Origin: Eledone cirrhosa
Taxonomy: Eukaryota
Direction: 5' to 3'
DNA: 64,000 nucleotides
Assembly (NCBI GenBank): GCA_964016885.1
Contig: OZ024741.1
Location: 42,842,001-42,906,000 of the forward strand
In this document: in pieces, positions 10,109 to 60,939 of the stretch
Position numbering within the stretch: the stretch's first letter is position 1
Layout: every line of letters begins with the position of its first letter
Notes under the pieces: generated by a model
What the model saw: the letters and a program-made list of their open reading frames with translations, nothing else
The model's database searches: none
What the model was told of the DNA's origin: nothing
Made by a program: the position numbers and the translations under genes

Positions 10109-10293
10109 GGTGCGGGTGAAATGAATTGAGCTTAGCGGAAAAGTCTGGATACGGCGTGGTAGGGTCGGAAAGTGCTCTACTACGGGAGTAGGAGCTAGAT
10201 AACGAAGGAAATGTGGTAAGGAACCAGGTGGACCATAACGCACCAAAGTACTCAATACTTGAGGTAGTAGAGTGGGTAATAGGAACCAGTAAG

Positions 10294-10387
10294 ACCCCGA
10301 CAGCTGAGCTCAAGCCGTTTCGACGGCTAATTCTGGACTAAATGAACATTTATCCTGGTATTTAAATAGCCGATCTTCTCAAGGGGT
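10294..10387 (-). ncRNA. Second copy of the U3-A8 hammerhead (upstream pLTR)
   Basis: Same sequence as 6763-6856, 3531 bp away. Confidence 0.85.
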
Positions 10388-11485
10388 AATTCCATATATG
10401 GTCAAAGTGATTGTCAAAAATCAGTAGTAATTCTGTGGTTGCAAATTAGTAGGGGAGATGGTGGCTAAACCTGCCAGTAGGAGAAAGAGGGGAGGGGGTG
10501 GAGTAGACCCAATCAAGCGTTGGTAGTGCCAGCTACAGCTGGGCATGAGGTCAAAGAAGATACAGGGGAGGGGGAGGGGGAGGAAGTCGGAACGGTAGGT
10601 AGAACAATGGTGGGTAGAAATAGGAAAGAAAAAATACTGAGAGTGAAGAAAAGCAAATAAGTGTAAAGAAAAAATTAAATTCTACGACCTAGGTGTCAGG
10701 CTATTGTTAGGCGAGAATAAAATAAAGAAAGAAAGAAAGAAGTAAATAAATAAATAAATAAATAAATAAGGAAATACGTAAAAGAACTAGGTGGGACGAA
10801 TTAGGCAAGGACCCTTTTAAGAGGTATAAGTACGTAAATGATACGGTGACTGGTCAACAAAAGGGGCCAAAATACTAAAGAGACTACCACGAAATAAACA
10901 ATAAAGGTTTCCATCCCGGGCCAGCAACGACCCAGTGCAGCAAAGTGAACTTGTACGACATAATAATTCTGAGTCCCGAGAAAAATATATACTAATGCTA
11001 ACTCTAAAAGATCTAAAACAAGCTACATGAAAGTTCGTACGAAATAAAGGTAGAATACGGAGAAATAAGTTCAGAATCCACCCCGCCCAGAAGAAAAGCG
11101 AAGCAAGAAATACTGAAACGAAAAAATAAGGCATAAGTGCCACTAAGAAATATAGAGGGCACAGAGAATAGTGGGAGCGGTCGGAAAAGGGGGGCAAGTA
11201 TCCGGGGTCTAAGCCAACTGCTATAAAGGGCGGCGTCCGCCAAATCTATCAAAGACTAGGGGAGGGGGGAGTGGGGGTACTAAGGCTACATGGGGCCAAA
11301 GGGCAGCCTCGGGTGGGCGAGAAAAGACGCCGACAAAGGAGAAGAGCTGGGGTAGAAGGACAAAGGAGAGAGGGGGGAAGGAAATAAAGGATGCGATAAA
11401 AGAATACAAAGAAGATCTTACGTCTTCCTTGGCAAGCAGGGGTTACCCATTGCAAAATCGGCAACTGGGGTGTTATAGCCCTAGT

Positions 11486-12211
11486 CTACCCCCCCGGGTC
11501 ATTATGGGGTTTGAGGGCGAGGTAAGTCCTACGCAATCTATGTTTACATGCAGTAACCAGTTCATCTTTCTTGTTTAGGAGTTGGTCCGTCGAAAACAGC
11601 ATTTGTAAAGTTTCCTCCGAGCATAAATTGCACGGACGGCGTCCTCCCGTGTAAGAATTGGCTCTGGACAGTAATCTCCAAGTGAGATCATAGGTGATGT
11701 TGTTGTCCTTGAGGTCCCATATGTGGCCCGAAAGTGTAGTGGCGTGACGCCGGGCCGGGTTTCGGAAGGTATGTCTATGTTGGTATAGCCGGGTCTTGAA
11801 GTCACATGCGGTAAGTCCTATATAGGCTTTGTTGGAGGTATCCGTCCTCACGTTGCACTGGTAGATCACATTACGGTCTCTGCATCTATTGTCGAGTGGG
11901 CAAATAGATCTATCCGGGCAGTTACACCTCCTGGTCGGTTCTCCACTGCTATTTAGGTTATTTCTGCCATCGGGGTTGAGTTTTTTGTTGTTAGAGGAGA
12001 CGATGTTTTGTGCGAAGTTTGGTGTAGTGCTGTAAGAGAGTTTGATGGTATTTTTGTTAATTATGTTGTGGTAGCGGTGTTGTAATGGGAAGTGTTTTTC
12101 AATGAGCCTAAAGAATAGTTTCCCGATGGGAGTAGTCACCTCTGCGTTGTGGGGAGGATTGAACCATGTTACATTGCGTGAGCGGCGGTGTCTCCTGCTG
12201 GTTCCGCTAAT
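11486..12211 (-). pseudogene. 5'-truncated duplicate of the PLE ORF (GIY-YIG part)
   Basis: Translation identical to the C-terminal 217 aa of 7955-10108. Confidence 0.92.
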
Positions 12212-12387
12212 GAAGATCGGCTATTTAAATACCAGGATAAATGTTCATTTAGTCCAGAATTAGCCGTCGAAACGGCTTGAGCTCAGCTGTCGGGGTCTTA
12301 CTGGTTCCTATTACCCACTCTACTACCTCAAGTATTGAGTACTTTGGTGCGTTATGGTCCACCTGGTTCCTTACCACATTTCCTTCG

Positions 12388-27201: not shown

Positions 27202-27410
27202 GAAAAGATTCAGGACCGAGACGGCAGAGCTGAGCTCCGGTCGTTTCGACAGCTAGATCCGAACTCTTCGAATCTAGGTGTCGAATCGACCGGGGCTCAT
27301 CCGTGGGGTTCGTGAATTTTTTCATATTACCCACTCCACTGCCCTAAGCATCGAGTACTCTGGTACGTTACGGTCCGCCTGGTATCTTACCACACCCTCT
27401 TTGTTGTTCA
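27202..27410 (+). mobile_element. Diverged fold-back mini-insertion of the Naiad pLTR/tail family
   Basis: ATTACCCACTCCACTGCCCTAAGCATCGAGTACTCTGG tail similar to 12310-12390; inverted 5' half. Confidence 0.75.
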
Positions 27411-27632
27411 TCTATCTATCTCTGGGATGGACACACGCGTATAACTTGCTGAGTAAGTTCTGTTTAAATTTCTATAGAAATTCTTGTCTGATAACTTTAA
27501 ATTTTGTACCATTTTGTAGAGGGACTGCCAGGTCAAACTTTGATCTGGTCAGTCTCTCAAAATATTCTACGCCTTTAGGCGAAATAGTTAAAAAAAAAGT
27601 TTTTTCTTGTTGAAAAGTCAATATTTTTTTAA

Positions 27633-29414
27633 ATGGCCGAAGCTTCTTCACCAAAATTCGAAGGAGGAAAGGGGAAGATGAACTTACAGCTTCCCCCTGC
27701 CACTGTCACAGTAGCAGAGGTCAAGAAGATAGGTCAGCCAGAGGAAGAATTCTCTCCACCTGTTAACCGACAACTTGACGTTACCATGGCAACAACCCAA
27801 AGAACCAACAGCAACAACAACAACAATGCGACGGTAGAAAACAACACCAATAACAATAACAATAACAACAACAAGACCAATAACGGTGACAACAACAACA
27901 ATGATAACAACAACACCACCAACGACAACAACAACACAAACAAACAAAATTTCTCCTTCGCCGAGACGACAAGGAAAACCCTCGACTATCTGCCAGTAGA
28001 TATAACAAAAGCGAAGGAGCTACTGGCGGATGCGAAAAAATATATAGTGTACGGGGAAAATGGTTCATTCACAATCCATTCCCCCCCGGAACTAAAAAGC
28101 CAGAGACTCCTAAACACGGTCATGTTTAGGACAATCTCGAACAAAAGTAAAAAACCAGCTCAACCATCACAGAGCGAGATAGAGCTGGTTTTAAAAGACG
28201 TCATGAAGGACATCACCTTCATTCAGAAGGATAGACTCTACGGGAGTCTATCCATTCTCATGAAGGACAGGGACACAGCAGTGAAACTGTCCATCAAACC
28301 AATCACATCCACCGCATACACCTTCTACCCTACGTACATGGGTAGAAGAACACAAAAAATAAAAATCCACACCATCCTGCCGATTATGGACATATGGTGG
28401 GTTTTGACAGGTCTTCTGGACCTGGAGGATGACATGCTGGTGTCCATGGGAAAGGCATCGGGTGACGCGTTCAGTGGAACGAGCCTCGAACTTGTAGTTC
28501 AAATGAGGCCCGAAAGGATCGCCCAGATCCCTGAACGCGTCATACTGGATGATCTAACCTTCATCAACATTACCGTTGAGGGTAGACGGCCCTCGTGTTA
28601 CCTCTGCGGAACCAGAGGTCACCTGAGGGCTGTCTGTCCCCAACTTAATAAGAAAACCCCAATCCTGCCTACACCACCAACAACTGCACAACCAACACAA
28701 TCACCACAACAACCACTACAAAAACAACCACCACAGCTCAAACCAAAACAAAACAATGTCCAACCCATCCCCTCCACTCAAAAAACAAAAACAATTTCCA
28801 AAACACCCGTACCGCAAACACAACCCGAAAATATACCCCTCCCCTCCAACGCGGAAGATGACCCTAGTTCGTCGTCAGACGAGGAGGAGCACTTCCACAC
28901 AATCAAAAGAAAAAAAAGAAAACACACCTCAGACACACAAATGAAAAAAACCCCTCCCCAAAACATAACACTGACACCAACACAAAAGAGCTCACAACAG
29001 CAAACAAAAAACACCACACAAAAACAAAAACATGCATACACATACATAAATACAAGAAACAAAAAACTGTTAAACATTGTGTACAACAACAATCTAATAA
29101 AAACACAAGGGCCTAACTTCACCCAGGCAGGGGATTTCCCCCACCTCAAAATGATTAAGGCCCCACAGGACACCTATAAAACTTTAAAAAACAATTTTAA
29201 AGAGGACGTGGGTCCCCCCTGCGTCGGGCCCATTAACCGAGTCCTCCTAAAAAACTATCCCACCCCCTCCCCAAACACCCTCACAACTCCAAGCTCCCCA
29301 ACCACACAACACACTGATGTCCCCACACTTCCACAAACCACCACCCCACCCAACAACCCATCCCCCACCCTAATGGAAATTGTGCAGCCCGATACCCGGG
29401 ACGCAGAGAGGTAA
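27633..29414 (+). CDS. LINE ORF1 protein (Asn-rich N-terminus, CCHC zinc knuckle, P/Q/T-rich tail)
   Basis: 593 aa; CYLCGTRGHLRAVC knuckle; aligns by eye with ORF1 of copies 2 and 3 (YP.YMG.R, MWW.L). Confidence 0.9.
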   Translation: MAEASSPKFEGGKGKMNLQLPPATVTVAEVKKIGQPEEEFSPPVNRQLDVTMATTQRTNSNNNNNATVENNTNNNNNNNNKTNNGDNNNNDNNNTTNDNNNTNKQNFSFAETTRKTLDYLPVDITKAKELLADAKKYIVYGENGSFTIHSPPELKSQRLLNTVMFRTISNKSKKPAQPSQSEIELVLKDVMKDITFIQKDRLYGSLSILMKDRDTAVKLSIKPITSTAYTFYPTYMGRRTQKIKIHTILPIMDIWWVLTGLLDLEDDMLVSMGKASGDAFSGTSLELVVQMRPERIAQIPERVILDDLTFINITVEGRRPSCYLCGTRGHLRAVCPQLNKKTPILPTPPTTAQPTQSPQQPLQKQPPQLKPKQNNVQPIPSTQKTKTISKTPVPQTQPENIPLPSNAEDDPSSSSDEEEHFHTIKRKKRKHTSDTQMKKTPPQNITLTPTQKSSQQQTKNTTQKQKHAYTYINTRNKKLLNIVYNNNLIKTQGPNFTQAGDFPHLKMIKAPQDTYKTLKNNFKEDVGPPCVGPINRVLLKNYPTPSPNTLTTPSSPTTQHTDVPTLPQTTTPPNNPSPTLMEIVQPDTRDAER

Positions 29415-29438
29415 GTGCCTTTTCTCTTCACCACCAAC

Positions 29439-32400
29439 ATGGCTATGCTAAGAGTAGGCTGTTTAAATGCGCGTGGCCTGGGCTCAACTTGGAAGCAAGC
29501 AATGCTTCTAAATGACCTCAGGTCACAACGTATAGATGTGATGGTTATTTGCGAGGCCCGGATCAGCAACGTGCGACAGCTGGCCCCCACCTTTGATGAC
29601 TTTGAGATGCACGCATCTCTCTGTCAGCCTGGAGGTGGGGGTGGAGTTGTCGTTCTGCTGCAAAAACATCTGGGTCTCGCAACACAGATGGTACATTTGG
29701 ACCCGGAGGGTCGACTAGTGGTTCTGGACCTTGGCAGTGGTAAAGGCGGAGCGTTTAGGTTGGTAGCCGCCTACGGCCCTTTCGGGTCAATGCGGCCGGA
29801 CTTCTTCCATCGTCTGGAGACTTTTCTAGGGACGTCCCGCTCCTTGCTATTAGTGGGGGACTGGAATGGTATCCTAGATGCACGCTGGGACTACGTAGGG
29901 GCCTGCCCCGATAGAGAGGGGTGTAATAGCCTCAAAGGGTTAATCGGTCGATTTGACCTGGCCGATAGATATCGACTAGATTTTCCGACTGCGCCAACCT
30001 GGACTTGGGCAAATCGTAGCGGATCATCTAGGTCGTACCTAGATAGGTTCTTAGTTAGAATTAAGGATAAGGACTTTTTAAGTTGTCCAAAAATGCGCAT
30101 TGTTGGCTATTCAGACCACAAATTAGTGACCTGCATGGTCAACCTTGACAGAACTCATAGACAGGGCCCCGGTTACTGGAAGCTCAACTTGTCCTTGCCG
30201 GCAAGTAGAGCCTACAGGAATCGGATTAGTACGTTAGTTAAGGAACGGTTGACTGGAGCGATCGTCAACAGCAGGTGGTGGGTATCTCTAAAGAGAGAGA
30301 TTAGAGTAGTCTCGATAGAATTTAGTAAGGGTCTAGCTGCGGATAGGAATAGGAAGGAAAGGGAGCTAATAGATAGAGTAGAAGAGGCAATTAGAAGCGG
30401 CGACGTGGCCAGAGTGCTAGCGTCGAGAACGGCTTTGAGCCAGTTTTTCGACGCGAAGCACGAAGGCTGCGTTGTCCGAAGTAAAATACGTGCTCTAGGG
30501 AACGAGGGGACCAAAGCTGTTAGCTGGGCCCGCGTGACAGAGGCCAACAGTGGAACTAAATCCACCATCCGGTCTTTGCGAGACCTGGATGGACGGGCGA
30601 TTCTTGAGCCTAAGCAGATGTGTGAGGCCTTTCAAAGGCACTTTGCCCGACTGTTCGGGAGGGGCGGGGAGCCGGTTGGGAACGTGGACTTCGGTCCATA
30701 CCTCGACGGCCTGCCGCGCCTCTCGGACAGGGAGGCGAAGTCCTGCGAGGAGCCGATTTCGGCCGCTGAGATAGAGGACGTGCTGAGCCAATGCGGCAAA
30801 CGCAAATCCCCGGGTCTCGATGGTCTTCCTTACGAATTATATCTAGCTATGCCGGACTTGTTCCCCGATCTCCTCGAGGCGGTCTACTGCAACTGGCAAC
30901 AGAACGGGAGAATTCCCTGTACTGTGACCAAGGGCGTAGTCACGCTAGTGAGGAAGGACGAGAACAAGGGGGACGAAATAAGTAACTTCAGGCCCATAAC
31001 ACTGCTAAATACAGAGTTACAGATTTTGGCCAAGGTGCTAGCAAAGAGGTTGGCGCTTGTCGTGGGCAACCTGGTGGGAGATGCGCAGACATGCGCTATC
31101 CCGTCCAGGTCCATCCATGACAACCTCCACCTCATGCGATACATCATAGAGAGGGTTGGGAACGAACCCGGCTTTGGTGGGGCTCTGATCAACTTGGATC
31201 AATCTAAGGCGTTCGATAGGGTCGACCATGGTTACCTGGATGCGGTGCTAGCGGCGGCAGGCTTCGGACCCGTTTTCAGGGGCTGGATCACTGCTATGCA
31301 CAGCAGCCGCATCTGCTCTAGGGTCAAGGTGAACGGCTACCTCTCGGAGCCGTTCAAAATCGCGCGGTCCATCCGACAAGGGTGCCCTCTCTCCTCCCTT
31401 CTGTATGTATTGACTCTCGAGCCACTACTGCGGAAGTTGGAGTTGTTGCAGGGCATCCCTTTGGAACCGGGATTGCGGAAAGCGGTGTCGGCCTACGCCG
31501 ATGACGTGACAGTAATGGTGTCGACGGCCTCCGAAATCGAGGCGGTCGGCACCTTACTGGAGGAGTACGAAAAGTTCACAGGGGCTAAGCTGAACCGGGA
31601 CAAGTCGATCGGTTTGCAACTCGGCACGTGGAGGGGCAGACCGATGCCCTCCGATAGCGTCGTCGGACGCTGGACGGAGGGCCCGGTGAAGTTGCTCGGG
31701 GTCTGGTTCGGACCGGACCTCCAGGTGGAGAAAAACTGGGCGGAGGTTACGAACAGAGTGTTTGCACTGACCCAGAAGTGGGCCAGTTGCAAACTATCCC
31801 TGAAAGGTCGGGCGGAGGTGGCGAACACCTACATAGCGTCCGTCATCTACTACCGCCTGACCGTAGTGCCCTGCCCAAGGGAAACCCTCACCAAGATGGA
31901 GCGCGCGCTCTTCCAATTCCTTTGGAAGAGGCGGGCTCCTATGGTGAGGAGATCCATCTGCTGTCAACACCCTTCGAAAGGAGGGCTGGGGATGCCGTGG
32001 CTAATGATGCGTAAACACGCATTAAGGCTACGGCACCTCTACGTATTCCTCACCGGACAACCGGTGTGGGCCTCGTTTGTGAGACGAACCTTTCCCAGAC
32101 TCGTCTCACTCACCGAGCTGCAATCCTGGGTCAAGCAAAGACCGAGAAAACTGGGCGCCTGGCACACTGAGTGTGCCCAGGCGCTCACCGCCCTCTGGCA
32201 GGCGGATCCGGTTATCAGTGGAGACTCCACCGCAACATTCTATAGAGGGCTGGTACGCAGCAGGTGCGACGACGCCCTCGGAGAAGCCCTAGACATGGAG
32301 GAGGACGAACTGGCCAGCCTTTTCGGTAGGACATTCAGCCCGGGACCTATGGACAACTTCCAGAAGTCCCTGGCCTGGCAGTGCTACCGAGGGGCTTTAC

Positions 32401-32876
32401 CCGTTCGAGAAAGGCTCTACAGACACGGGCGCCCGGGTAGGGACCCCGCCAAAAAGATCTGTCCCAGATGCGTGTGCGACGAGGAAACCGTTGCACACGC
32501 ATTAGTACACTGCTCGGGCGTAGCCGATCTGTGGGGCTATGTCGAACAACTGCTGTCAAGGGTGGGACCGATCCGGTTGACCACCGAGTCTATTGTAATG
32601 ATCAAGCCGCCTCCCCCCTTCAAAGATGAAGCAGAGGCGGTGTTTCTGTGCGTAATAGCCATGGCGAAAGAGGTTGTATGGTGGACGCGTCTGAAAGGAC
32701 TGAGGTCGGGCACCTTTCTCTCTGGCCAACAACTGGTCCGTTTCTTCCGATATCATTTCGGAAGAAGGATCAGGATGGAGAGAGAGGTGCTGCACCCCAG
32801 CCGTTTCTATGAAAGATGGGTGAAAGTGGCGAGAATGGCCCGTGTGAATGGGCCTTCACTCTACATCAGACTATAG
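29439..32876 (+). CDS. LINE ORF2: APE endonuclease + reverse transcriptase + C-terminal Cys motif
   Basis: LNARGL, GDWN, YLDR, SDH (APE); KSPGLDG, NFRPITLLN, DQSKAFDRV, QGCPLS, AYADD (RT); CPRC..ETVAHALVHC. ATG in CCAACATGG at 29439. Confidence 0.96.
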   Translation: MAMLRVGCLNARGLGSTWKQAMLLNDLRSQRIDVMVICEARISNVRQLAPTFDDFEMHASLCQPGGGGGVVVLLQKHLGLATQMVHLDPEGRLVVLDLGSGKGGAFRLVAAYGPFGSMRPDFFHRLETFLGTSRSLLLVGDWNGILDARWDYVGACPDREGCNSLKGLIGRFDLADRYRLDFPTAPTWTWANRSGSSRSYLDRFLVRIKDKDFLSCPKMRIVGYSDHKLVTCMVNLDRTHRQGPGYWKLNLSLPASRAYRNRISTLVKERLTGAIVNSRWWVSLKREIRVVSIEFSKGLAADRNRKERELIDRVEEAIRSGDVARVLASRTALSQFFDAKHEGCVVRSKIRALGNEGTKAVSWARVTEANSGTKSTIRSLRDLDGRAILEPKQMCEAFQRHFARLFGRGGEPVGNVDFGPYLDGLPRLSDREAKSCEEPISAAEIEDVLSQCGKRKSPGLDGLPYELYLAMPDLFPDLLEAVYCNWQQNGRIPCTVTKGVVTLVRKDENKGDEISNFRPITLLNTELQILAKVLAKRLALVVGNLVGDAQTCAIPSRSIHDNLHLMRYIIERVGNEPGFGGALINLDQSKAFDRVDHGYLDAVLAAAGFGPVFRGWITAMHSSRICSRVKVNGYLSEPFKIARSIRQGCPLSSLLYVLTLEPLLRKLELLQGIPLEPGLRKAVSAYADDVTVMVSTASEIEAVGTLLEEYEKFTGAKLNRDKSIGLQLGTWRGRPMPSDSVVGRWTEGPVKLLGVWFGPDLQVEKNWAEVTNRVFALTQKWASCKLSLKGRAEVANTYIASVIYYRLTVVPCPRETLTKMERALFQFLWKRRAPMVRRSICCQHPSKGGLGMPWLMMRKHALRLRHLYVFLTGQPVWASFVRRTFPRLVSLTELQSWVKQRPRKLGAWHTECAQALTALWQADPVISGDSTATFYRGLVRSRCDDALGEALDMEEDELASLFGRTFSPGPMDNFQKSLAWQCYRGALPVRERLYRHGRPGRDPAKKICPRCVCDEETVAHALVHCSGVADLWGYVEQLLSRVGPIRLTTESIVMIKPPPPFKDEAEAVFLCVIAMAKEVVWWTRLKGLRSGTFLSGQQLVRFFRYHFGRRIRMEREVLHPSRFYERWVKVARMARVNGPSLYIRL

Positions 32877-33163
32877 GTGAGGAAGATGAAAGACCAAGGG
32901 AGCACCCCTTCTCTGTGCTCCTGAGGAGAAGGGTTGCACACTTTTTTCGGGGGTGTGTGCGACCCCCCAAGGCGCCTCCTCTCTATTGAGGATTTTGTTA
33001 AAAATTTTATTTTTTGTTATATCTTATTTTATTTTTATATTTTGTTATTGCCTCCTCCTTATTGAGGACGCCTTTTTGTGTAAACTCCCCCCTTTGTACT
33101 TGTCCCACTTTTGATGCCCTAGTGGCAAATAAAAGAAATATATCTATCTATCTATATATATAT

Positions 33164-45350: not shown

Positions 45351-48300
45351 GATTTCATTTATTGGCCACAAGGGCCGACATATAGAGGACAATACAACAG
45401 ACTGGGACAGTGGGGTTTTACAGAAAAATCGAGTAAACAATATGAATAACAATAACAAAGTATCAATAACAAAGTAACAATAAAGTAACAATAAAATTAC
45501 AAGAAAAAATTCCCAAATATGAGGGATGACCACCTAGGGTTCGATCAGGTACCCCACCAGTCCTGAACTACCCGACGCTTTGAGAGCACCCTGGAAGGGC
45601 ACCCCTCAAATTTACCTACCTATAGCCGCATGATCAGAGTAGGCCCACTCACACGGGCCATTCTAGCCACATTCACCCACCATTCAGCAAATGTACTGGC
45701 GGGCAGCACTTCTCTCTCCACTCTCACCTTCCTTTCCAAGTGAAACTTGAAAAAGTTGATGAGGGATTGGCCGAAGAGAAAAGTGTCTGTCTTCAATCCT
45801 TTCAACCTCGTCGACCATACAACCTCTTTCGCTACTGCCACCAGACAGAGGAAAATTGCCTGCCCTTCCTGGCCAAAAGAAGGCGGCGGGTCGATTTTCA
45901 CTATGGACTCGGCCGATAGCCGGATCCGTTCTACACGCGACAACAGCTGTTCAACATAACTCCACAAGTCAGTAATGCAGGGACACTGGACGAGTGCGTG
46001 CAGAACGGTTTCGTCGCTCTGTGCGCATCTCGGGCAGGTCCGTCTGACAGCACTTCCGTTCCTGTAGAGTTTATCTCGAACCGGCAGTGCCCCCCGGTAA
46101 CACTGCTAAGCGAGGGATTTTTGAAAATTATCCATCGTCCCCGGCTCAAAAGTCCTCCGGTACAGACTGGTTAGTTCGACTTCGTTGACTCCCAGAGCCT
46201 CTCCGAGTGCGTCGTCGCACTTGCCCACCACTAATCTTCTATAGAACTCGAGAGTGGAAGTTCCACTGACCTCATTGCCCGCTTGGTCGAGGGCAGTGAG
46301 TGCCTGGCAACATTCCAGATGCCAGTCACCCAGTCTCGGTCTCTTCTTGACCCAAGACTGCAGCTCAGTCAAAGAAACGAGCTGCGGAAAGGCCCGTCTG
46401 ACAAACGGCGACCACATCTGTTCACCGTTTAGGCAGAATATCTGGAGACGCCGCAGCCTCAGCGCGTGCCTGCACATCATTAGCCACGGCATGCCCAGCC
46501 CTCCACGTAGAGGGTGCTGGCAGCAGATGGACCGCCTCACCAGCGGAACCTGACCCCTCCACAAAAATTTGAAGAGGAGACGCTCCAAAATGACGAGGCG
46601 CGAACGGGAGCAAGAGACGACGGTCAGACGGTAGTAGATGACGGACGCGATGTACGCGTTCGCCACCTCCGCCCGACCTTTCAGTGATAGCTTCATCCCA
46701 GCCCATTTCTGGGTGAGACTGGCTACCCTGCCCGTCACCTCGTCCCAATTCTTATCCACCTGGAGGTCTGGCTCGAACCAAACCCCTACAACTTTACCAG
46801 TCCGTCCGTCCAGCGCCTAACGACGCTGTTAGACGGCATGGACATGCCTCTCCAGGTGCCGAGTTGCAAGCCCACCGACTTTTCCGGGTTAAGTTTTGCT
46901 CCCGTCAACCTTTCATATTCCTCCAATAAGTTGCCGACCACCTCGATTTCTGAGGTGTCCGACACCATCACTGTGATGTCGTCCGCATAAGCCGACACAG
47001 CCTTTCCGCGTCCCGGTTCGAGCGGGATGCCCTGCAACAGCTCCAGCTTCCGCAGTCATGGCTCGAGAGTCATTACGTACAGAAGGGAGGAGAGAGGGCA
47101 CCCTTGACGGACCGATCGGGAGACCTGAAACGGTTCCGAGAGGTGGCCATTAATTTTGACCATCGAGCAGGTGCCGCTGTGCATTGCAGCGATCCAGCTT
47201 CTGAAGACGGGGCCGAAGCCAGCCGCCTCGAGGACAGCCTCCAGGTACCGATGGTCGACCCTATCGAATGCTTTCGATTTATCTAAATTGATCAGAGCCC
47301 CACCGAAGCCAGGTTTACACCCTACCCTGTCTATGATGTATCGCATTAAGTGGAGGTTGTCGTGTATGGACCTGGTTGGGATTGCGCAAGTTTGCGCCTC
47401 CCCAACCAACTCCCCGACGACAAGCGCCAACCTCTTCGCTAACACCCTGGTTGAGTAGAGTTATGGGCCTGAAATTGTCTAATGTGTCCCTCTTGTTCTC
47501 GTCTTTCCGTATCAGCATCACTACGCCCCGGCTCACAGAACTGGGAATACTCCCGTTTTGCTGCCAGTTGCAGTAGAGAGCTTCGAGGAGATTGGAGAAC
47601 AAGTCTGGCATATTTACGTAAAGCTCGTAGGGCAGACCATCCAAACCGGGTGACTTGTGCCTTATGCAGCTGATAAGGGCATCCTGAATCTCGGCTGAAG
47701 TAATTGGCCTTTCGCAGCGCCCAGCGTCAGCCGTCGAGAGTTGCGGCAAGCCATCGAGGTAGGGACTGAAGTCCGCCACCATCTCTGACCCGCCACCTCC
47801 CCCGAACAACCGAGCAAAATGTTGGCGAAAGGCCTCACACATCCTCTTGGAATCGCTCAGCTCGAGCCCGTCTCGGTTCGTCAAAGACCGAATCGTGGTT
47901 TTATTACCACGCTGCGCCTCTGCCACGCGGGCCCATCGAACAGCTTTGGTTCCCTCGTTTCTCAGAGCACGCGCCTTAGCTCTGACAATGCAACCTTCGT
48001 GTTTCGCATTGAAGAAATGGTCTAATGCCATTCTCGCCGCTAGCACGTCAGTTGCAATACCACTACCAATAGCATCGTCTAACTTATCTTCCAACTCCCC
48101 CTCCTTTCTATTTTTCTCTAACGCTACTTCTTTGCTAAACTCTATCGACATTACTCTAATCTCTCTTTTGAGAGCCCCCCAGCATCTATTGTTGACGACT
48201 CCCCCTGTCAACTTTTTCTTAACTAAATTGTTGACCTGGTCCCTGTAAGCCTTACGTGCCAGAAATGACATGTTTAGCTTCCAGTAACCAGGTCCTAACC

Positions 48301-51186
48301 TACGCGTCTTATCTAGGTCGACCATACAGATCACACACTTGTGATCTGAATAGGCGACCGTTTCAAAACGTGGACAGCTTACACTATTTCTGTCTATTTT
48401 CCTAATTAATATCCTGTCTATATACGATCTAGATGACCCTATGCGGTTAGCCCAGGTCCACACTGGCGCATTAGGGAAATTTAGTCGGTACCTGTCAGAC
48501 AGTTGGAACTGGCTGATCAGGTTCTTGAGGCTTTTGCACCCCCCGCTCCTATCGGATACTCCCACACAGTCCCAGCGTGCGTCTAAGATGCCGTTCCAGT
48601 CCCCCGCTAACAGTAAAGGGCGAGACGTACCCAGAAAGGCATCCAGGCGTCTAAAGAAGTCCGGCCGTCCTGCCCCAGTAGGAGCATAGACGGCCACCAG
48701 TCTAAAGGCACCACCTTCGTTATTGTTCACGTCCAGGACCACCAACTTCCTCCGGTTCCCGGAAGATCGACCTTACCTCGAGATCCAGGCCTTTCCTAAA
48801 CAGCACTGCCACCCCGCCTCCCATTCCCGGCCGGCTAACAGATGCAAAGATCTGATACTTGTTCAAAATGGGGGCTAGTGCGCGCGTGTCGGAAATCCTG
48901 GTATCGTTGACGGCAATTACATCCATTTCTATAAACCTGAGGTCGTTGAGCAGGTGACCCTGCTTCCAGGACGATCCCAGGCCTCGAACATTTAAACATC
49001 CTACTCTTAATACGGCCATGTTGGCAGGTTAAAAGGAGAGAGGGGAAGGTTTACTTACCTTCCGGGCTCTTGTGAAGGTCGGGTTGTTTGACCACCATAG
49101 TTGGTGGGGTTTCTTTTGGGAACCCTTTTAAAAGTCTTGAAGTGGGTTTTACGTTCGGGGTTCCCACGTCCCGAGGAAAGCTGTCTCGTATTTCTTTGAA
49201 TATATCGAGCGACATTCGCACCAGAATCAAATCTTCCGGCACGCGAAATGTGCTCGATTTAAAAATTTTCCCCTCTTTTTGTATATTTTCACTTCGTGCT
49301 ACGAGGGCCATCACTTCCTTGTTGGCCCTCCTGACGAGCACGAAGTTTTGTAAGTTTTCTTGGTGTGATTTTATTGTTTGCGTGGTTGTGGTGGTGATGG
49401 TTTTGGTGGTGTTGTTTCGGTTGTATCTGTGTTTGTTGTGAGTGTGGTGTCTGTGGTTTCAGATGTTTGTGTGTATATTTGTTCTTGCGTCTGTTTAGGT
49501 TGTTTGCGTTTAGGGGATTCTGGTGATGGTGATGGTGGTGTTGATGTTGGTGTTATTGGAGAGATGTTTGCGTGGGTGGTCTCTGCGTTTTTTTATTGTG
49601 GGTGATTTTTGTGCTTTGGTGATTTTGGTAGATGAGGGGACTGTGTCTGTAAGTGTGTCTGTATGTATGTTTATGGTTTTATTGGTGTGTGTATTTTTGG
49701 GGGGAGGCGGAATTTGACAGCTTTCCTCGTTTCCCCCCCTGGGTGGTCAATGCTGGTGGTGGTCTTTCTATTGGTGTTGTTGGTGGTTTTTCCGGTGCTG
49801 GAGTTGGTTGTGGGCCTCGCCCCGGCGTCGGCAGCAGTGGAGCCTTCCGACCCTTACCTCTTTCAGCAGTTGAGGGAAGAAGGCTCGCAAATGGGATTTT
49901 TCCCCACAAAGAAAACACTGCGGCCTTTTGCCTTCGGTCATAATGTTAATGACCGTCCCATACTAAAGGCGGATGTGGTCCGGGATTGTCTTCACATTCT
50001 CGAGCCTCATCTGGAGAAGGATCTCCAGGTCAACCCCGGACCAGTCCTCTCTGGCCGTTCTGGTCACTTCTATAGGGACGGTATCCGTCCCCTCCACAAT
50101 CACACATCCCAGAAGCCACCACATGTCAAGTCCTGGTGGGATTCTGGGAATGCGGAGACGGGCCGTTCTTTTTCCCATGTGGGAGGGGTACATTATGACC
50201 TTGCTGGTTTTGCACTGAGTCATAGCGTGTTTCATAGCGAGGGCTTCTGACTTGAACAACACCGAAATGGTGCCGTACTGTCTGCCCCTCTCTATGTATT
50301 CGGTGTCTTCTCTGATGCACCTCAGCGCGACTTCGACATCTGCTTGTGGGATTAAAGCTGCCCTTTTGGTTTGTGCTGAGATGCATCTATAATGCACCGT
50401 TCTGCGCCCCACTGCCTCAATAGCTTCTAGCGGGACAGTTAAGTTGGCCCAGGTTTGCTCTTGCTTGATGAGCTTCCATACCTGGGCCAACTTTTCATCT
50501 TTATTTGAGAGGTTCATGTTGAAGCATGGCCTCTTTTTTGCTGCTGCCGCAGCGAAGGTGTTCTTCTTATTTTCGTTGGGGGTGTTGTTGTCGTTGTCGT
50601 TGTTCTTGTTGGTTTTGTTGTTATCACTTTCGCTGTTATCATTGTTGTCTTTGTTGCCACCGTTGTTCTCGGTGCAGTTGGTATTGTTGGTATTGGTGTT
50701 GTCGCTATTTGTTTTCATGTTAGTGGTGTTGATATTGTTATTGATTTGTCATTTTTTTTTGTTATCTGTATTTTCGTTGTCGCTGTTACTGTCATGTTTT
50801 TCAAAATTAGAGTTCTCATTGGTATCATTGGTGTCTTTGTTTACATTGTTTGTGGTGGTGTTTGTGTTATAAATTTGTGTTAATTTCGCTGTAGCGCTCC
50901 TCTCAACTTCCACGTCGTTGTTGCACGACAGCAGAAATATAGCTGGGGTGGGGGTGGGGTGAATGGGGGGGGGGCTCAGCCGTGTTTCTTTTTTCTCCGT
51001 AAATGTTTTAACATGTAAACAAAATTCAAATATTTGGGCCAAAAGGCCCAAATATACTTTCCCCTTCACAGGGCAATGTCTAAGGGCTTATATCCCTTAC
51101 ACAACAAGAAATATTTAACAACAAATAATGTTTACAGGCAAATAAAGCGACTTACTGGGAGCGAGCAAAATACGTCCGCTTAGACC
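45351..51186 (-). mobile_element. Full-length L1/Tx1-type LINE, copy 2 (ORF1 and ORF2 broken by frameshifts and stops)
   Basis: ORF2 pieces 45620-49019 closely match copy 3; ORF1 pieces 49051-50970; (TAA)n at both ends; AATAAA before the tail. Confidence 0.94.
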
Positions 51187-54582: not shown

Positions 54583-54856
54583 TAATAACAATAATAATAA
54601 TAATGATTTCATTTATTGGCCACAAGGGCCGACATATAGGGGACAACACAATAGACAGGGACAGTGGGGGTTTACATAGAGATCGAGTAAGTATAAATAA
54701 CAAAATACAAAATAACAATAAAAATACAACAATGAAAGTTCCCCAATAAGAGGGATCACCACCCAGGGTTGACTCAAGCACCCCACCAGTCCTGAGCCAC
54801 CCGACGCTCCTAGGGCACCCGGGAAGGGCACCCCTCTCCTTCTCGAATTCACCAGC

Positions 54857-57800
54857 CTACAGGCGCATGATCAGAGTAGGCCCACTCACGCGGGCCATTC
54901 TCGCCACATTCACCCACCTTTCAGTAAATGTACTGGGGGGCAGCACTTCTCTCTCCACCCTGACCTTCCTTTCCAAGTGAAACTTGAAGAAGTTGATGAG
55001 GGATTGGCCGAAGAGAAAAGTGTCTGTCTTCAGTCCTTTCAACCTGGTCCACCATGCAACCTCTTTCGCTACTGCCACCAGGCAGAGGAAAATTGCCTGC
55101 CCTTCCTGGCCAAAAGAAGGCGGCGGGTCAATCTTCACTATGGACTCGGACGATAGCCGGATCCGTTCTACACGCGACAATAGCTGTTCGACATAACCCC
55201 ACAAGTCAGCAATGCACGGACACTGGACGAGTGCGTGCAGAACGGTTTCGTCGCTCTGCGCGCATCTCGGGCAGGTTCGTCTGACAGCACTTCCGTGCCT
55301 GTAGAGTTTATCCCGAACCGGCAGCGCCCCCCGGTAGCACTGCCAAGCGAGGGATTTCTGGAAGTTATCCATCGTCCCCGGCTCGAAAGTCCTCCGGAAC
55401 ATACTGGTCACTTCTACTTCGTTGACGCCCAGAGCCTCTCCTAGTACGTCATTGCACTTGCCCTCCACTAATCCTCTATAGAAATCTTGAGTGGAAGTTC
55501 CACTGACCGCATTGCCCACCTTGCAGAGTGCAGTGAGCGCCTGGCAACATTCCAGATGCCAGTCGCCCAGTCTCGGTCTCTTCTTGACCCAGGACTGCAG
55601 CTCAGTCAAAGAGATGAGCTGCGGAAAGGCCCGTCTAACAAACGGCGACCACACCTGTTCACCGTTTAGGCAAAATATCTGGAGATGTCGCAGCCTCAGC
55701 GCATGTCTGCGCATCATTAGCCACGGCATGCACAGCCCTCCACGAAGAGGGTGCTGGCAGCAGATGGACCGCCTCACCAACGGGACCCGTCCCCTCCACA
55801 AAAATTTGAAAAGGAGCCGTTCCAAATTGGCGAGGCGTGGACGGGGGCAAGGCACGACGGTCAGGCGGTAGTAGATGACGGACGCGATGTACGCGTTCGC
55901 CACCTCCGCCCGCCCTTTCAGTGATAGCTTTCTCTCAGCCCATTTCTGGGTGAGGTTGGCTATCCTGCTCGTCACCTCGTCCCAATTCTTATCCACCTGG
56001 AGGTCTGGTCCGAACCAAACCCCGAGCAACTTTACCGGTCCGTCTGTCCAGCGCCCAACGACGCTGTTGGACGGCATGGACTTGCCTCTCCAGGTGCTGA
56101 GCTGCAAGCCCACCGACTTTTCCGGGTTAAGTTTTGCTCCCGTCAACCTTTCATATTCCTCCAAATGGGTGCGGATCACCTCGATTTCCGAGGTGTCCGA
56201 CACCATCACGGTGATGTCGTCCGCATAAGCGGACGCAGCCTTTCTACGTCCCGGTTCGAGCGGGATGCCCTTCAACAACTCCAGCTTCCGCAGTAGAGGC
56301 TCAAGAGTCAATACGTACAGAAGTGAGGAGAGAGGGCACCCTTGACGGACCGATCGAGAGATCTGAAACGGTTCCGAGAGGTGGCCATTAACTTTGACCA
56401 CCGAGCAGATGCCGCTGTACATTGCAGCGATCCAGCTTCTGAAGACGGGGCCGAAGCCAGCCGCCTCGAGGACAGCCTCCAAGTACCGATGGTCGACCCT
56501 ATCGAATGCTTTCGATTGATCTAAATTGATCAGAGCCCCACCGAAGCCAGGTTTGCACCCAACCCTCTCTATGATGTATCGCATGAGGTGGAGGTTGTCG
56601 TGTATGGACCTGGTCGGGATTGCGCAAGTTTGCGCCTCCCCAACCAAATCTTTGACGACAAGCGCCAACCTTTTCGCTAACACCTTGGCCAAAATCTTAA
56701 ACTCTGTGTTGAGCAGGGTTATGGGCCTGAAATTATCTAGTGTGTCCCTCTTGTTCTCGTCTTTCCTTATCAGCGTCACTACGCCACGGCTCACAGAACT
56801 GGGAATGCTCCCGTTCTGCTGCCAGTTGCAGTAGAGCGCTTCGAGGAGATCGGAGAACAAGTCTGGCATATTTACGTAAAGCTCGTAGGGCAGACCATCC
56901 AAACCGGGTGACTTGCGACTCGAGCAGCCGACAAGGGCGTCCTGAATTTCTACTGATGTTATCGGCTCTTCGCAGCGCTCAGCGTCGGCCGTCGAGAGGC
57001 GTGGCAAGCCGTCGAGGTAGGGACTGAAGTCCGCCGCCGTCTCCGACTCACCCATCCTCCCGAACAATCGAGCAAAGTGCTGGCGAAATGCCTCACACAT
57101 CTGCTTGGAATCGCTCAGTTCGTGTCCATCTCGATCCGTCAAAGACTGAATTGTGGTTTTATTTCCACGCTGCGTCTCTGCAAAGCGAGCCCATCGGGCA
57201 GCTTTGGTTCCCTCGTTCCTCAGAGCACGCGCCTTAGCTCTGACAATGCAACCTTCGTGTTTCGCATTGAAGAAATGGTCTAGTGCCATTCTCGCCGCTA
57301 GCACGTCTGTTGCAATGCCACTACAAATAGCCTCGTCTAACTTAGCTATCAGCCCCTCCTCCTTTCTATTTTTCTCTATTGCTACTTCTTTGCTAAATCC
57401 TATCGAGGTTGCTCTAATCTCTCTTTTGAGTGCCCCCCACCACCTGTTGTTGACAACCCCCCCTGTCAACTTTTGCTTAACTAAGTTGTTGACCCGGTCC
57501 CTGTAAGCTTTACGTGCCGGAAACGACATGTTTAGCTTCCAGTAGCTAGGTCCTAACCTACGTGTCTTATCTAGGTCGACCATACAGATCACAAGCTTGT
57601 GATCTGAATAGGCAACCGTTTTAAAATGTGGACATCCTACACTATTTCTATCTCTTTTCCTAATGAAAATCCTATCTATGTACGATCTAGATGACCCTAT
57701 GCGATTGGTCCAGGTCCATACTGGCGCATTAGGGAAATCTAGTCGGTACCTGTCAGACAGTTGAAACTGGCTGATCAGGTACTTGAGGCTTTTGCACCCC

Positions 57801-58276
57801 CCGCTCCTATCAGATACTCCCACACAATCCCAGCGTGCTTCTAAGATGTCATTCCAATCCCCTATTAACAGTAAAGGGCGAGACGTAAGCAGAAAGTTTT
57901 CCAGGCGCCTAAAGAAGTCCGGCCGACCGGCCCCAGTAGGGGCGTAGACGGCCACCAGTCTAAAGGCACCACCTTCGCTATTGCTCACGTCCAGGACCAC
58001 CAACTTTCCGTCAGGATCCCGGAAGATTGACCTTACCTCGAGATCCAGACATTTCCTAAACAGCACAGCCACTCCACCTCCCATTCCCGGCCGACTAACA
58101 GATGCAAAGATCTGATAATCGTCGAAAATCGGCGCCAGTGCGCGTGTGTCGGAAATTCTGGTCTCGCTGATGGCAATTACATCCATTCCTAGTGACCTGA
58201 GGTCGTTGAGCAAGTGACCTTGCTTCCAGGGCGACCCCAGGCCACGAACATTTAAACTTCCTACTCTTATGGCCAT
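54857..58276 (-). CDS. LINE ORF2 APE-RT, 1139 aa
   Basis: All APE/RT motifs present (GDWN, SDH, QGCPLS, AYADD); several conserved Gly residues substituted relative to copy 1. Confidence 0.95.
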   Translation of the reverse strand: MAIRVGSLNVRGLGSPWKQGHLLNDLRSLGMDVIAISETRISDTRALAPIFDDYQIFASVSRPGMGGGVAVLFRKCLDLEVRSIFRDPDGKLVVLDVSNSEGGAFRLVAVYAPTGAGRPDFFRRLENFLLTSRPLLLIGDWNDILEARWDCVGVSDRSGGCKSLKYLISQFQLSDRYRLDFPNAPVWTWTNRIGSSRSYIDRIFIRKRDRNSVGCPHFKTVAYSDHKLVICMVDLDKTRRLGPSYWKLNMSFPARKAYRDRVNNLVKQKLTGGVVNNRWWGALKREIRATSIGFSKEVAIEKNRKEEGLIAKLDEAICSGIATDVLAARMALDHFFNAKHEGCIVRAKARALRNEGTKAARWARFAETQRGNKTTIQSLTDRDGHELSDSKQMCEAFRQHFARLFGRMGESETAADFSPYLDGLPRLSTADAERCEEPITSVEIQDALVGCSSRKSPGLDGLPYELYVNMPDLFSDLLEALYCNWQQNGSIPSSVSRGVVTLIRKDENKRDTLDNFRPITLLNTEFKILAKVLAKRLALVVKDLVGEAQTCAIPTRSIHDNLHLMRYIIERVGCKPGFGGALINLDQSKAFDRVDHRYLEAVLEAAGFGPVFRSWIAAMYSGICSVVKVNGHLSEPFQISRSVRQGCPLSSLLYVLTLEPLLRKLELLKGIPLEPGRRKAASAYADDITVMVSDTSEIEVIRTHLEEYERLTGAKLNPEKSVGLQLSTWRGKSMPSNSVVGRWTDGPVKLLGVWFGPDLQVDKNWDEVTSRIANLTQKWAERKLSLKGRAEVANAYIASVIYYRLTVVPCPRPRLANLERLLFKFLWRGRVPLVRRSICCQHPLRGGLCMPWLMMRRHALRLRHLQIFCLNGEQVWSPFVRRAFPQLISLTELQSWVKKRPRLGDWHLECCQALTALCKVGNAVSGTSTQDFYRGLVEGKCNDVLGEALGVNEVEVTSMFRRTFEPGTMDNFQKSLAWQCYRGALPVRDKLYRHGSAVRRTCPRCAQSDETVLHALVQCPCIADLWGYVEQLLSRVERIRLSSESIVKIDPPPSFGQEGQAIFLCLVAVAKEVAWWTRLKGLKTDTFLFGQSLINFFKFHLERKVRVEREVLPPSTFTERWVNVARMARVSGPTLIMRL

Positions 58277-58305
58277 GCTGGCAGGATGAATGGGAGAGGA
58301 AAGGT

Positions 58306-60214
58306 TTACTTACCTTCCGGGGTCTTGTGAAGGTCGGGTGGTTCGACCTCCATGGTTTGTGGGGTTTCTTTTGGGAACCCCTTTAATAGTCTTGACGTGG
58401 GTTTTACGTTCGGGGTTCCCACATCCCGAGGAAAGCTCTTTCGAATTTCTTTGTATGAAGCGAGCGACATTCGCATCAGAAGCAAATTATCTGGTACGCG
58501 AAATGTGCTCGCTTCAAATGTTTCCCCGTCTTTTTCGATGTTTGTGCTTCGTGCTACATGGGCCATCAATTCCTTGTTGGCCCTTCTGGCAAGCACGAAG
58601 TTTTTAATGTTTTGTTGCTCGGGTTTTATTTGTTCGTGTGATTGTGGTGGTGATAGCTTTGTTAGTGTTGTTTCTATTGTGTCTGCGTTTGTTGTGGGTG
58701 GGGTGTCTGTAGTTTCTGATGTTTGTGTGTCTATTTGTTCTTGTGTCTGTTTAGCTTGTTTGCGTTTGGGGGATTTTGGTGGTTGTGTTGGTGATGCTGT
58801 GGGGAAAATGTTTGTGTGGGTGGTGTGTGTATTTTTTTTTGTGGGGGTGTTTGTGCTTTGTGGATTTCTTTTTTTTTTGTGTTTTGTTTTTTGTATTTTG
58901 GGGGACTTTGGTTTTCCCTCATCTTCACTGCTGGAGGATGAGGGGTCTGTGGCTGTGAGCGTGTTTGTGTCTGAGTGAGTGTTTATGTTCTTGTTCGTGT
59001 GTGTATTTTGGGGGGGAGGGGGAATGGGAGAGCTTTCCTCGTTTCCCCCCTGGGTGTGCAATTTTGGTGGTTCCATTGTTGACGGTGTTGCTGGTGGTCC
59101 TTGTCCCGGCGTCGCCAGCAGTGGAATCTTTCGACCCCTTGCGCTTTTCGGCAGTTGAGGGCAGAAGGCTCGCAAGTGTGTCGTTTCCCCACAAAGGAAA
59201 CAATGCGGCCTTTTGCCCTCAGTCATTATATGCAACACCCTCCCGTTTTGGAGGCGGATGTGGTCCGGGATTGCTTTTACGTTTTCGGGTCTGATTTGGA
59301 GCAGTATCTCCAGATCAACCCCGGACCAGTCGTCCCTGGCAGTTCTCGTTGCCTCTACCGGGACTGTATCCGTTCCTTCCACGATTACGCAACCCAGGAG
59401 CCACCACATATCAAGTCCTGGTGGAATCCTGGGAATGCGCACACGTGCTATTCGTTTTCCCATGTGGGAGGGGTACATTATAACCTTGCTGGTTTTGCAA
59501 GGGGTCATTGAATGCTTCACAGCGAGGGCTTCAGACTTGAACAGCACCAAAACGGTGCCGTATTGCCTGCCCCTCTCTATGAAGTCTGTGTCCTCTCTGA
59601 TGTATTTCAGTGCGGCTTCTATATCAGCTTGGGCGATTATCGCTGCCCTCTTTGTCTCTACTGAGATGCATCTGAAATGCACCGTTCTTTTTTCCACTGC
59701 CTCAATGGCTTCTGCCGGGACAGTTAAGTTTGCCCAGGTCTGCTCTTGATTTATGATTTTCCAGGCCTGGGCCAACTTTTCCTCTCTGTTGGTTAAGTCG
59801 ATGCTGTAGCATGGTCTCCTTTTAGCCGCTGCCACAGCAGCGAAGGTGTTCTTGTTGGTGTTGTCACTGTTGTTGTTCTTGTTGGTGTTGCTGCTGCTAT
59901 TGCTGTTGTTGTTCTCCCCTGTGTCGTTCTCCCTCTGTGCTGTTGGCCTTGTTGGTGCTGTTGCTGTCGCTACTATTACTCTCTGTGCTGTTCGTTTTGT
60001 TGGTGCTCTCGCTATTACCACCTTCTGCGCTGTTCGGCTTGTTGGTGTTGGTGTTGTCGCTGTTACCACCTTCCGCGCCGCTCGGCCCGTTGGTGCTGGC
60101 ACTGTCGCTGCTCACATTCGTGCTGGTGGCGCTCCTCGCCTCACCTCTCCTCTCAACGCTCAAGTCGCCGTTGCACGACAGCAGACCCGCCTCTAGGGGG
60201 CGTGGCTCCGCCAT
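58306..60214 (-). pseudogene. LINE ORF1 with a single frameshift near 59930
   Basis: The likely start MAEPRPLEAGLLSCNGD (60214) matches copy 2 LLSCNND; the CFLCGETTHLRAFC knuckle is in the 58306-60102 frame. Confidence 0.85.
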
Positions 60215-60939
60215 GTTTTTTTGAGAAAAAAATTATTTTTTTTTTTTTTCAAAATAAAGTTCAAATATTTGGGCCAAAAGGCCCAAATATTATGAGTTAT
60301 TCCTTCACAGGATACAAATTAATGTCTTATAATGCTTCAGCGGTACAAAAAATAAACAATTCTCTACAATTAATCCTCAAAAAATTGCTTACTCACGGAG
60401 CTTCAAAAAACGTACATCCACTTTCGTCAATAATAATAATAATAGCAACAACAACAGCAGCAGCAGAAGTAGTAGTAGTAGTAGTAGTTCTAGTAGTAGT
60501 AGTAGTAGTAGTAGTAGTTCTAGTAGTAGTAGTAGTAGTAGTTCTAGTAGTAGTAGTAGTAGTAGTAGTAGTAACACTGGAAATAATATTGAACTTCATA
60601 TCTTTAACTCTCTTTAACCTTTATTTCCCTTCAACATTCCCCAGTATCAAGAATGCAACAGTAAAAGTAAAAACTACAAACAACGCAATACTTTCAATTT
60701 CGACATGAAACTTAACCACTCCTTACAATGACAGGAAGCACATACTTTGTTTGTTTCACCGAAGTAACTATATTACCAAGAACGTGGTGTGTATGAAATA
60801 TTGGCACCAAACTAATGATTTAGTTTCACATTCCATTCCATAGTATTCATGTGGAAGATCACTTCAGTTATCATCATCATTATCAACATCATCATTGTTA
60901 TCATTATTATTATGATTATTATTATGATTTGTGACATAC

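Follow-up and report, generated by a model that had tools for sequence, protein, structure and literature searches.

Conserved 5′ splice-site motifs at three positions in L1/Tx1-group LINEs of Eledone cirrhosa, with a possible ORF1-only spliced mRNA

In the accepted view, a LINE expresses both ORF1p and ORF2p from a single unspliced bicistronic RNA (PMC5860796). The window analysed here, a 64,000-nucleotide stretch of the Eledone cirrhosa genome, raises the question of whether some of these elements also carry selected splice signals, and what such signals would do. The original prediction was that three LINE copies in the window share a short 5′UTR intron at a conserved position, retained in genomic copies, and that this implies separate pools of mRNA and genomic RNA. 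The sequences support a U1/5′ splice-site signal near the 5′ end that has been selected and kept in genomic copies, and donors of the same kind recur at two further positions.

The three copies, A, B and C, are full-length LINEs of the L1/Tx1 group. Copy A (27422..33141, + strand) lies in a (TATC)n microsatellite and has both ORFs intact. Its 12-bp target duplication (27410-27421 on the 5′ side, 33142-33153 on the 3′ side, +) moves its start from the predicted 27421 to 27422, while the starts given for B (51186) and C (60428) hold. Copy B (45351..51186, − strand) has both ORFs interrupted. Copy C (54605..60428, − strand) has an intact ORF2 (54857-58276) and an ORF1 with one frameshift (58306-60214). 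B and C both sit in (TTA)n, where the repeats hide any target duplication; all three copies are thus in microsatellites, in a window that is itself microsatellite-rich (n=3). B and C are 85% identical across 5.5 kb; over ORF2, A shares 71-73% identity with them. ORF1 of A (27633..29414, +) encodes 593 aa with a single CX2CX4HX4C knuckle, which is present in 7/7 ORF1s and corresponds to the CCHC of Tx1-type ORF1s. ORF2 of A (29439..32876, +) encodes 1145 aa comprising an APE endonuclease, a reverse transcriptase (RT) and a zinc-binding C-terminus. The Pfam families PF03372, PF00078 and PF13966 are matched in A and C, with zf-RVT under its cut-off in A, and the top PDB match of ORF2 is L1 ORF2p (E = 4e-58, compared with 1e-22 for R2). 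The atlas neighbours of ORF1 are zf-CCHC/RRM proteins (0.90-0.92); ORF1 has no match in Pfam, so the RRM is a lead only. With two ORFs, an ORF2 of this composition, a target-site duplication and a 3′ AATAAA, the anatomy is that of the L1 group and is Tx1-like, an assignment set by anatomy, with a tree that contains no named Tx1 references. The nearest named ORF1 relatives among the matches listed are from Argonauta hians and three Octopus species.

Other repeats share the window. A fourth, more diverged member of the family (65-70% identical) is an internal fragment of ORF2 only (61186-61849, −), and a broken RT-encoding LINE, which we take to be RTE-like, lies between B and C (51918-54077, +). 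An RT-like ORF of 717 aa (7955-10108, −) has a GIY-YIG-like end and no Pfam match, and is presumably Penelope-like; tied to it is a 1.9-kb duplication (6748-8681, repeated at 10279-12212) with 99.9% identity. An Rfam scan of the window gave 129 matches at E<=5 and zero at gathering score; nothing is listed for the three 5′UTRs, and no snRNA, spliced-leader or ribozyme match appears. Heads derived from U2 or SL RNA, which to our eye the B/C hairpin and the T-run of C resemble, were dropped, as A, B and C do not share a common 5′ end and the Rfam scan shows nothing there.

The donor nearest the start, D1, is a GTRAGT about 32 nt from the 5′ end of all three copies, as predicted. It is GTAAGT at +32 in A (27453..27458, +) and in B (51150..51155, −), and GTGAGT at +33 in C (60391..60396, −), where it overlaps a GTAAGC at +37. 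Positions +1 to +6 fit the U2-type GT donor consensus in 3/3 copies. The exon side is weak, the −1 base being non-G in A, B and C, and D1 lies outside the top seven U1 matches of each copy. GTRAGT occurs 75 times in the window and two to four times per element. In 20,000 Markov resamplings for each copy, the chance of finding it at +29..+42 is 0.0056 (A), 0.0047 (B) and 0.0029 (C), and that of finding it anywhere in the UTR is 0.12, 0.11 and 0.06, respectively; since the copies are homologous, these figures do not represent three independent events. A tract rich in T follows the donor, as had also been proposed, the T content of the segment being 0.42-0.49 against 0.23-0.31 upstream and 0.31-0.36 downstream.

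The predicted pairing of D1 is 0.91 in A, 0.84 in B and 0.94 in C, and the fraction of 60 shuffled sequences with pairing as high is 0.08, 0.15 and 0.03. Folding is clearly above that of shuffles only in C and in three near-identical types of the relative lineage described below; at four of nine D1 sites of relatives pairing is not above shuffles, so masking of D1 is not general. In the 5′UTRs of three relatives (L003, L029 and L023), a perfect inverted repeat of ~14 bp has D1 as one of its arms, with a pairing probability of 1.0 that 0/60 shuffles reach, and this predicted structure is a possible splice-site mask. Several smaller features accompany D1. By eye, a motif led by GGA(T/C) recurs 20-31 nt upstream in both lineages, in the three window copies and in several of the types found among the relatives; a number of relatives have it as GGATTAC, which L023 repeats three times, and it is possibly a core-promoter or transcription-factor site. 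Very short upstream ORFs begin within the first 32 nt at 27427 (A, five codons) and 60417 (C, four codons), while B has no such ORF in its first 32 nt. Past the candidate acceptors there are stable hairpins (27520-27590, 51029-51054 and 60264-60291); the folding z of the whole UTR is −3.3 to −3.9, and a hairpin is likewise present in the corresponding region of the relatives' UTRs.

The sequence around D1 is less uniform than its position. The three 5′UTRs had been described as otherwise dissimilar, which is wrong for B and C: these align upstream of the segment (z=3.3 against shuffles) and downstream of it (z=9.2; 71/91 aligned bases), while the ‘intron’ segment itself gives z=1.6. Flanks that align around a segment that does not would fit an intron or a spacer. 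The lengths of the candidate introns, 67, 76 and 71 nt in A, B and C, are as predicted, and the endpoints are present in the sequence. The acceptors named for them fared unequally. In A, a branch-like CTGAT (27488-27492), a T tract and a TAG (27488..27519 in all, +) make a fair candidate that ranks 6/67 among YAGs, with 13/19 pyrimidines. In B (51080..51098, −), the first AG past the tract is an AAG at 51096 (+60), and the named TAG at 51080 is weak, with 7/19 pyrimidines and another AG just upstream. In C (60326..60337, −), both 60335 (+62) and the named 60326 are AAG. A branch-like motif, a pyrimidine tract and a YAG occur together in A and do not do so at the named sites of B and C, whose AG/ACATT sequences are out of register and non-homologous in the B/C alignment. 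The score used for acceptors is a plain pyrimidine count rather than a species-trained model. Nor is a short intron of 67-76 nt conserved among the relatives, whose candidate introns after D1 range from ~64 to >260 nt. Of the 12 5′UTRs examined, the four of GTAAGA type (4/4) have TTTCAG/G behind a T tract and six more carry a YAG close to the start codon; in the remaining two, a YAG is absent beyond 40 nt past D1.

A second shared site, unnoticed in the original prediction, lies at the ORF1 stop. This donor, D2, reads AG/GTAAGT in 3/3 copies and is followed by a pyrimidine tract. It spans the ORF1 stop in A (29409..29416, GT at 29411, +; phase 2) and is the best U1 match of 281 GT sites. In B it falls in the last ORF1 codons (49053..49060, GT at 49058, −; phase 1; rank 2 of 317 GT sites), and in C (58308..58315, GT at 58313, −; phase 1) it is the best of 293, the ranking being by complementarity to the U1 5′ end from locus L040. 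AG/GTAAGT occurs once in each of A, B and C, where 0.07-0.09 per element is expected, and three of its five occurrences in the window are D2 sites; the chance of D2 is ~1e-5 per base. The stop codon is inside the hexamer in A, after it in B and C, and entirely before D2 in the relatives, where the donor lies wholly past the stop in a 14-nt spacer. With D2 in phase 2 in A, in phase 1 in B and C, and beyond the stop in the relatives, a coding constraint does not account for it. It is also predicted to be more open than D1, with a pairing probability of 0.32-0.36 in A, B and C against 0.84-0.94. A phase-1 AG/GTAAGT forces C-terminal residues that are seen in two further, diverged ORF1s at 30-33% identity, one ending in EGKS and the other in QGK. 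Of 29 proteins inspected among those listed of 478 matches, seven window-side ORF1s that carry the C-terminal domain were picked by eye, and these two are among the seven. Searches for ORF1 homologues among 8000 candidates and among 16 gave no matches.

When D2 is joined to the ORF2 stop, the length of ORF1 is unchanged in 3/3 copies, and among 107 aligned AGs, of which 42 are YAG, no AG other than that of the ORF2 stop has this property; the per-copy background of AGs that keep the length is 11/266, 16/257 and 13/267. This result carries little weight, because the donor-like bases after that AG in A and B, with GTRA, bring a stop, so the unchanged position of the stop is partly automatic and was downgraded as strong proof of ORF2 skipping. 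Two other uses of D2 and the spacer were rejected. An in-frame ORF1-ORF2 fusion through D2 needs introns of 36-58 nt and, by eye, a different AG in each copy; an ORF2-only mRNA needs a spacer acceptor, which is found only in C (rank 1/76), A and B having AAC there.

ORF2 ends at YTAG/G in A, B and C, which makes the stop itself a candidate acceptor, and in A and B a third donor, D3, follows directly. The sequence is TAG/GTGAGG in A (32874..32882, GT at 32877, +), a YAG/G acceptor candidate with D3 at U1 rank 3 of 281. In B it is TAG/GTAGGT (45614..45622, GT at 45619, −), with an acceptor candidate of rank 10/73 and D3 at U1 rank 1 of 317. The TAG/G of C (54857..54859, −) is an acceptor candidate of rank 4/76 with a branch-like motif 15 nt upstream; C has no D3 consensus at the ORF2 stop, and the distal 3′UTR acceptor is likewise missing. 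That distal candidate stands in A at 33122 (33120..33133, +), with rank 2/67, 246 nt from D3 and close to the terminal AATAAA (33128), and in B as a CAG (45402..45404, −) 218 nt from D3. No poly(A) tail is present in A, B or C, none having an A run >4 past its terminal AATAAA. There are 0-4 AATAAA per ORF1, about as composition predicts, and 0-1 per ORF2.

How far these donors extend beyond the window can be judged from a second lineage. A scan of genome contigs with the ORF2 alignment found 46 loci, of which 42 entered the counts and four (L040, L041, L045 and L046; 27-31% identical) were considered separately. The 42 are on contigs filed under one bacterial MAG, evidently host contamination, and counts were de-duplicated by contig position. 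These loci (L001-L039 and L042-L044, contigs CAXXMW01) are head-to-tail arrays of eukaryotic LINEs with a period of ~6.4-6.9 kb, in which 5′UTR and ORF1 types are swapped between units, an unusual tandem cluster for a LINE. A scan of six loci for tRNAs found none. The relatives are 41% identical to the window copies in ORF2 and 23-28% in ORF1; they comprise a few subfamilies from one assembly, with ORF2 ~93% identical, and count as one independent lineage.

Across this deep split the donors keep their places. D1 is present at 43/45 junctions, in diverged 5′UTR types. At 32/45 junctions it reads AAAA/GTAAGT, 56-70 nt past the AATAAA of the previous unit, which by estimate corresponds to about +33 to +47 counted from where the unit begins; at 11/45 it is GTAAGA, 105-135 nt past that AATAAA. 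It is missing after L009, where the next unit is 5′-truncated, and at L034. D2 is found at 60/60 ORF1 ends anchored by motif and at 60/60 anchored by the ORF2 start (60/61 with L034). D3, as G/GTRAGT, is found at 43/43 motif-anchored ORF2 ends (44/44 with L034), 14 nt past the position of the ORF2 stop, and its hexamer varies only at R. In 5/43 relatives the ORF2 stop, with its AG, is lost and ORF2 ends within the D3 donor. D2 and D3 both rank within the top five U1 matches in 5/5 units. The top-scoring acceptor of the whole unit is a 3′UTR site in 5/5 units; it matches a pattern 237-263 nt past D3 in 14/17 distinct 3′UTRs, and in the remaining 3/17 a YAG is seen by eye. A T- or pyrimidine-rich tract follows each of the D1 sites tested (12/12), and such tracts also come after the D2 sites of the window and the D3 sites of the relatives. 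As a whole, donors are better conserved than acceptors. At the unit ends, no A run >4 follows the terminal AATAAA (45/45).

L034 is a divergent unit, missed by both anchor motifs, that has D3 and lacks D1 and D2. It groups with the arrays and not outside both lineages (tree support 100/97), so the layout is either dispensable there, having been lost, or was gained twice. Apart from L034, and from D3 in C, the donor motifs are retained in every full-length genomic copy seen. Among the loci considered separately, L040 (29% identical) has no D2 and the ORF2 end of L041 has no D3 consensus. U1-related sequence also turns up elsewhere. One relative subfamily has a perfect 11/11 U1 match within ORF1 (L015:2467), and L040 has a complete U1 snRNA copy (L040:2095-2287) before a distant L1/Tx1-like element (ORF2 29% identical) and a 5′-truncated copy (L040:9067-9225) directly past the AATAAA and short A run of the same element, 159 bp being duplicated exactly. 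The sequence suggests either that the element inserted into a U1 target and made a very long duplication, or that it carries U1 as its head.

The best explanation, to which we give an even chance, is that D1, D2 and D3 are three 5′ splice sites under selection and that inefficient splicing yields an ORF1-only mRNA. From the motifs we infer that U1 snRNP binds all three sites and that splicing occurs there. D1 lies just downstream of where the internal promoter is presumed to be; D2 marks the ORF1 stop, and D3 the ORF2 stop or the bases directly after it. In part of the transcripts D2 would be joined to the TAG/G of the ORF2 stop or to a 3′UTR acceptor, removing ORF2 and leaving an mRNA for a full-length or near full-length ORF1p. 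D1 and D3 would define short UTR introns that are inefficiently used, D1 having its weak exon side and often lying in a stem. RNA that escapes splicing would be the sole source of ORF2p and, by cis preference, also the template. Genomic copies would keep all the introns because the unspliced RNA is the template, and this would cover the 3′UTR intron too, whose loss would spare the promoter. On the unspliced RNA, U1 would silence cryptic AATAAA sites within ORF1, which is A-rich, and may silence the terminal AATAAA too, giving a read-through RNA that ends in the target repeat and has no poly(A); speculatively, such a block would fit the lack of poly(A) in 45/45 unit ends. The arrangement would work like the gag-end U1 site of the Ty1/Copia element EVD, but in a LINE. 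Beyond EVD as well, U1 near a poly(A) site inhibits polyadenylation. A more ambitious form of this reading, a retrovirus-like splicing programme in which ORF2 is the intron of a dedicated ORF1-only mRNA and the template escapes D1-D3 and the poly(A) site, is more tentative; U1 at D3 would then place the read-through target repeat at the end of the template, where it primes site-specific insertion. Spliced retrocopies were looked for at 61 ORF1 ends, 44 ORF2 ends and 45 junctions and none was found, the loci having been selected for ORF2, so that ORF1-only copies would be visible only in flanks; none of the 29 matches inspected is an ORF1 protein with the spliced-form C-terminus.

Binding of U1 with little splicing might account for much of the same evidence, and we regard it as possible though on the unlikely side. 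D1 would boost the internal promoter and shield ORF1 from early polyadenylation, D2 would shield ORF2, and D3 would block polyadenylation at the element's own site, letting the template run on into the target repeat. That donors are conserved far beyond acceptors, that no spliced copies or proteins turned up in the loci and matches inspected, and that 45/45 unit ends lack a poly(A) tail all suit such a role, as do the splicing-independent function of U1 demonstrated in EVD (PMC5580714) and the conserved donor of human L1 5′UTRs that are mostly unspliced (PMC5860796). It leaves the acceptors of the relatives unaccounted for, however, since a textbook 3′UTR acceptor is kept (rank 1 in 5/5 units; 17/17 3′UTRs) along with the T-tract TTTCAG/G of 4/4 GTAAGA-type 5′UTRs, and with 0-1 AATAAA per ORF2 there is little for D2 to shield. 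Motifs unrelated to splicing are improbable. On that reading D1 would be a DNA site for the promoter or a transcription factor and D2 and D3, which contain TAA, would be contexts for termination or re-initiation. Downstream core-promoter elements lie at +28 to +33, the distance of D1, whose weak exon side also agrees with such a site, and D2 and D3 are always at stop codons. The conserved donor of human L1, SD97, lies in a RUNX3 site and offers a precedent (PMC5860796). Against this, an identical 8-mer stands in three different relations to the ORF1 frame, D3 varies just at the A/G position that splice sites tolerate, and the pyrimidine-rich tracts recur behind D1 (12/12), D2 (window) and D3 (relatives); two or three explanations would be needed where a splice donor covers all three sites.

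The original prediction of one conserved 67-76 nt 5′UTR intron, spliced at the named acceptors in the manner of Penelope, now appears quite unlikely. The conserved position of D1, the branch motif and good acceptor of A, the conserved-diverged-conserved pattern of B and C and the 75-bp intron that begins 46 bp past the start of Penelope (PMC2377424) all speak for it, but the acceptors of B and C are weak and non-homologous, the length varies among relatives, and D2 and D3 are left out. The alternative offered with that prediction, a U1 site that serves promoter or anti-termination control, may still hold. Least credible is chance, or neutral inheritance of AT-rich hexamers: GTRAGT is found 75 times in the window and two to four times per element, and the copies are related, yet the position-specific odds are <0.6% for D1 and ~1e-5 per base for D2, and the motifs persist where the flanking UTRs fail to align and ORF1 is 23-37% identical.

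The reading of D1-D3 as inefficiently used splice donors can be set beside several known systems, as far as the parts of the cited papers drawn on here describe them. In EVD, a Ty1/Copia element of Arabidopsis, a spliced short RNA gives the structural protein and the unspliced RNA gives the enzymes and the genome; U1 also represses premature termination, inhibiting a poly(A) site to which it is close, and the quality of the donor outweighs that of the acceptor (PMC5580714). The likeness to the Ty1/Copia shGAG system lies in a conserved donor for U1 where the first ORF ends, predicted here from sequence. EVD is an LTR gag-pol element with a short intron coupled to early termination, experimentally shown, whereas the window element is a LINE with separate ORFs, a putative intron that comprises the whole of ORF2 (~3.45 kb) and two extra donors. 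Penelope of D. virilis has its 5′UTR intron in the promoter region; it is kept in genomic copies with conserved splice sites, and its deletion kills the reporter protein and not the RNA (PMC2377424). D1 alone resembles this short retained intron. Penelope-like elements form a class of their own, having a single ORF, a GIY-YIG nuclease and mostly spliced transcripts; here there are two ORFs and an APE nuclease, the LINE anatomy also excludes the Copia group, the acceptor is unconserved, and two further donors accompany D1.

Human L1 is closer in anatomy. Its 5′UTR donor SD97 is conserved and seldom used, the acceptors vary, and RNA structure has been proposed to mask it; it is kept for the RUNX3 site, splicing is harmful and ~2% of full-length copies are spliced (PMC5860796). 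Cis preference is established in human L1, and its 5′UTR-spliced RNAs still retrotranspose in cis (PMC5860796). Since they do, 5′UTR splicing by itself would not part mRNA from template; separate mRNA and genomic RNA pools stay plausible for the window elements, with D2 as their better basis. The part of that source used here reports no ORF1- or ORF2-stop donor for human L1 (PMC5860796). The Tx1 elements Kibi and Koshi and the crocodilian families share two ORFs, an APE-RT ORF2, a zinc-knuckle ORF1 and insertion into microsatellites (PMC4494074); their targets are (TC)n or (TTC)n, while the window copies lie in (TTA)n and (TATC)n, and internal splice sites are not described in the portion consulted (PMC4494074). 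Drosophila TART is likewise a non-LTR element with spliceosomal introns, but these are in antisense transcripts, whereas the signals described here are on the sense strand at ORF boundaries (PMC1636488). A literature search with most subscription papers and Repbase reports outside its reach found no L1/Tx1 element with conserved ORF-boundary donors and, within the same limits, no ORF1-only spliced mRNA reported for the group; the portions used of PMC9341512, PMC5203782 and bioRxiv 2020.06.13.149070 contain nothing on ORF-boundary donors.

L1-Tx1 elements have recently been active in O. vulgaris, where the portion of the account used here gives 13 families and 421 insertions (PMC13282606). For the ratio of ORF1p to ORF2p and the choice of template in LINEs, the ORF1-stop donor offers a specific alternative, an ORF1-only spliced mRNA. 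If the splice-donor reading is true, intron retention would reach past the Penelope-like elements, in convergence with Ty1/Copia. Strong donors on the sense strand also predict chimeric splicing into host genes. The retrovirus-like programme, if true, would mean that ORF1p is supplied in trans while ORF2p still prefers its own RNA in cis, and would jointly explain the excess of ORF1p, the retention of introns and the missing poly(A) tails.
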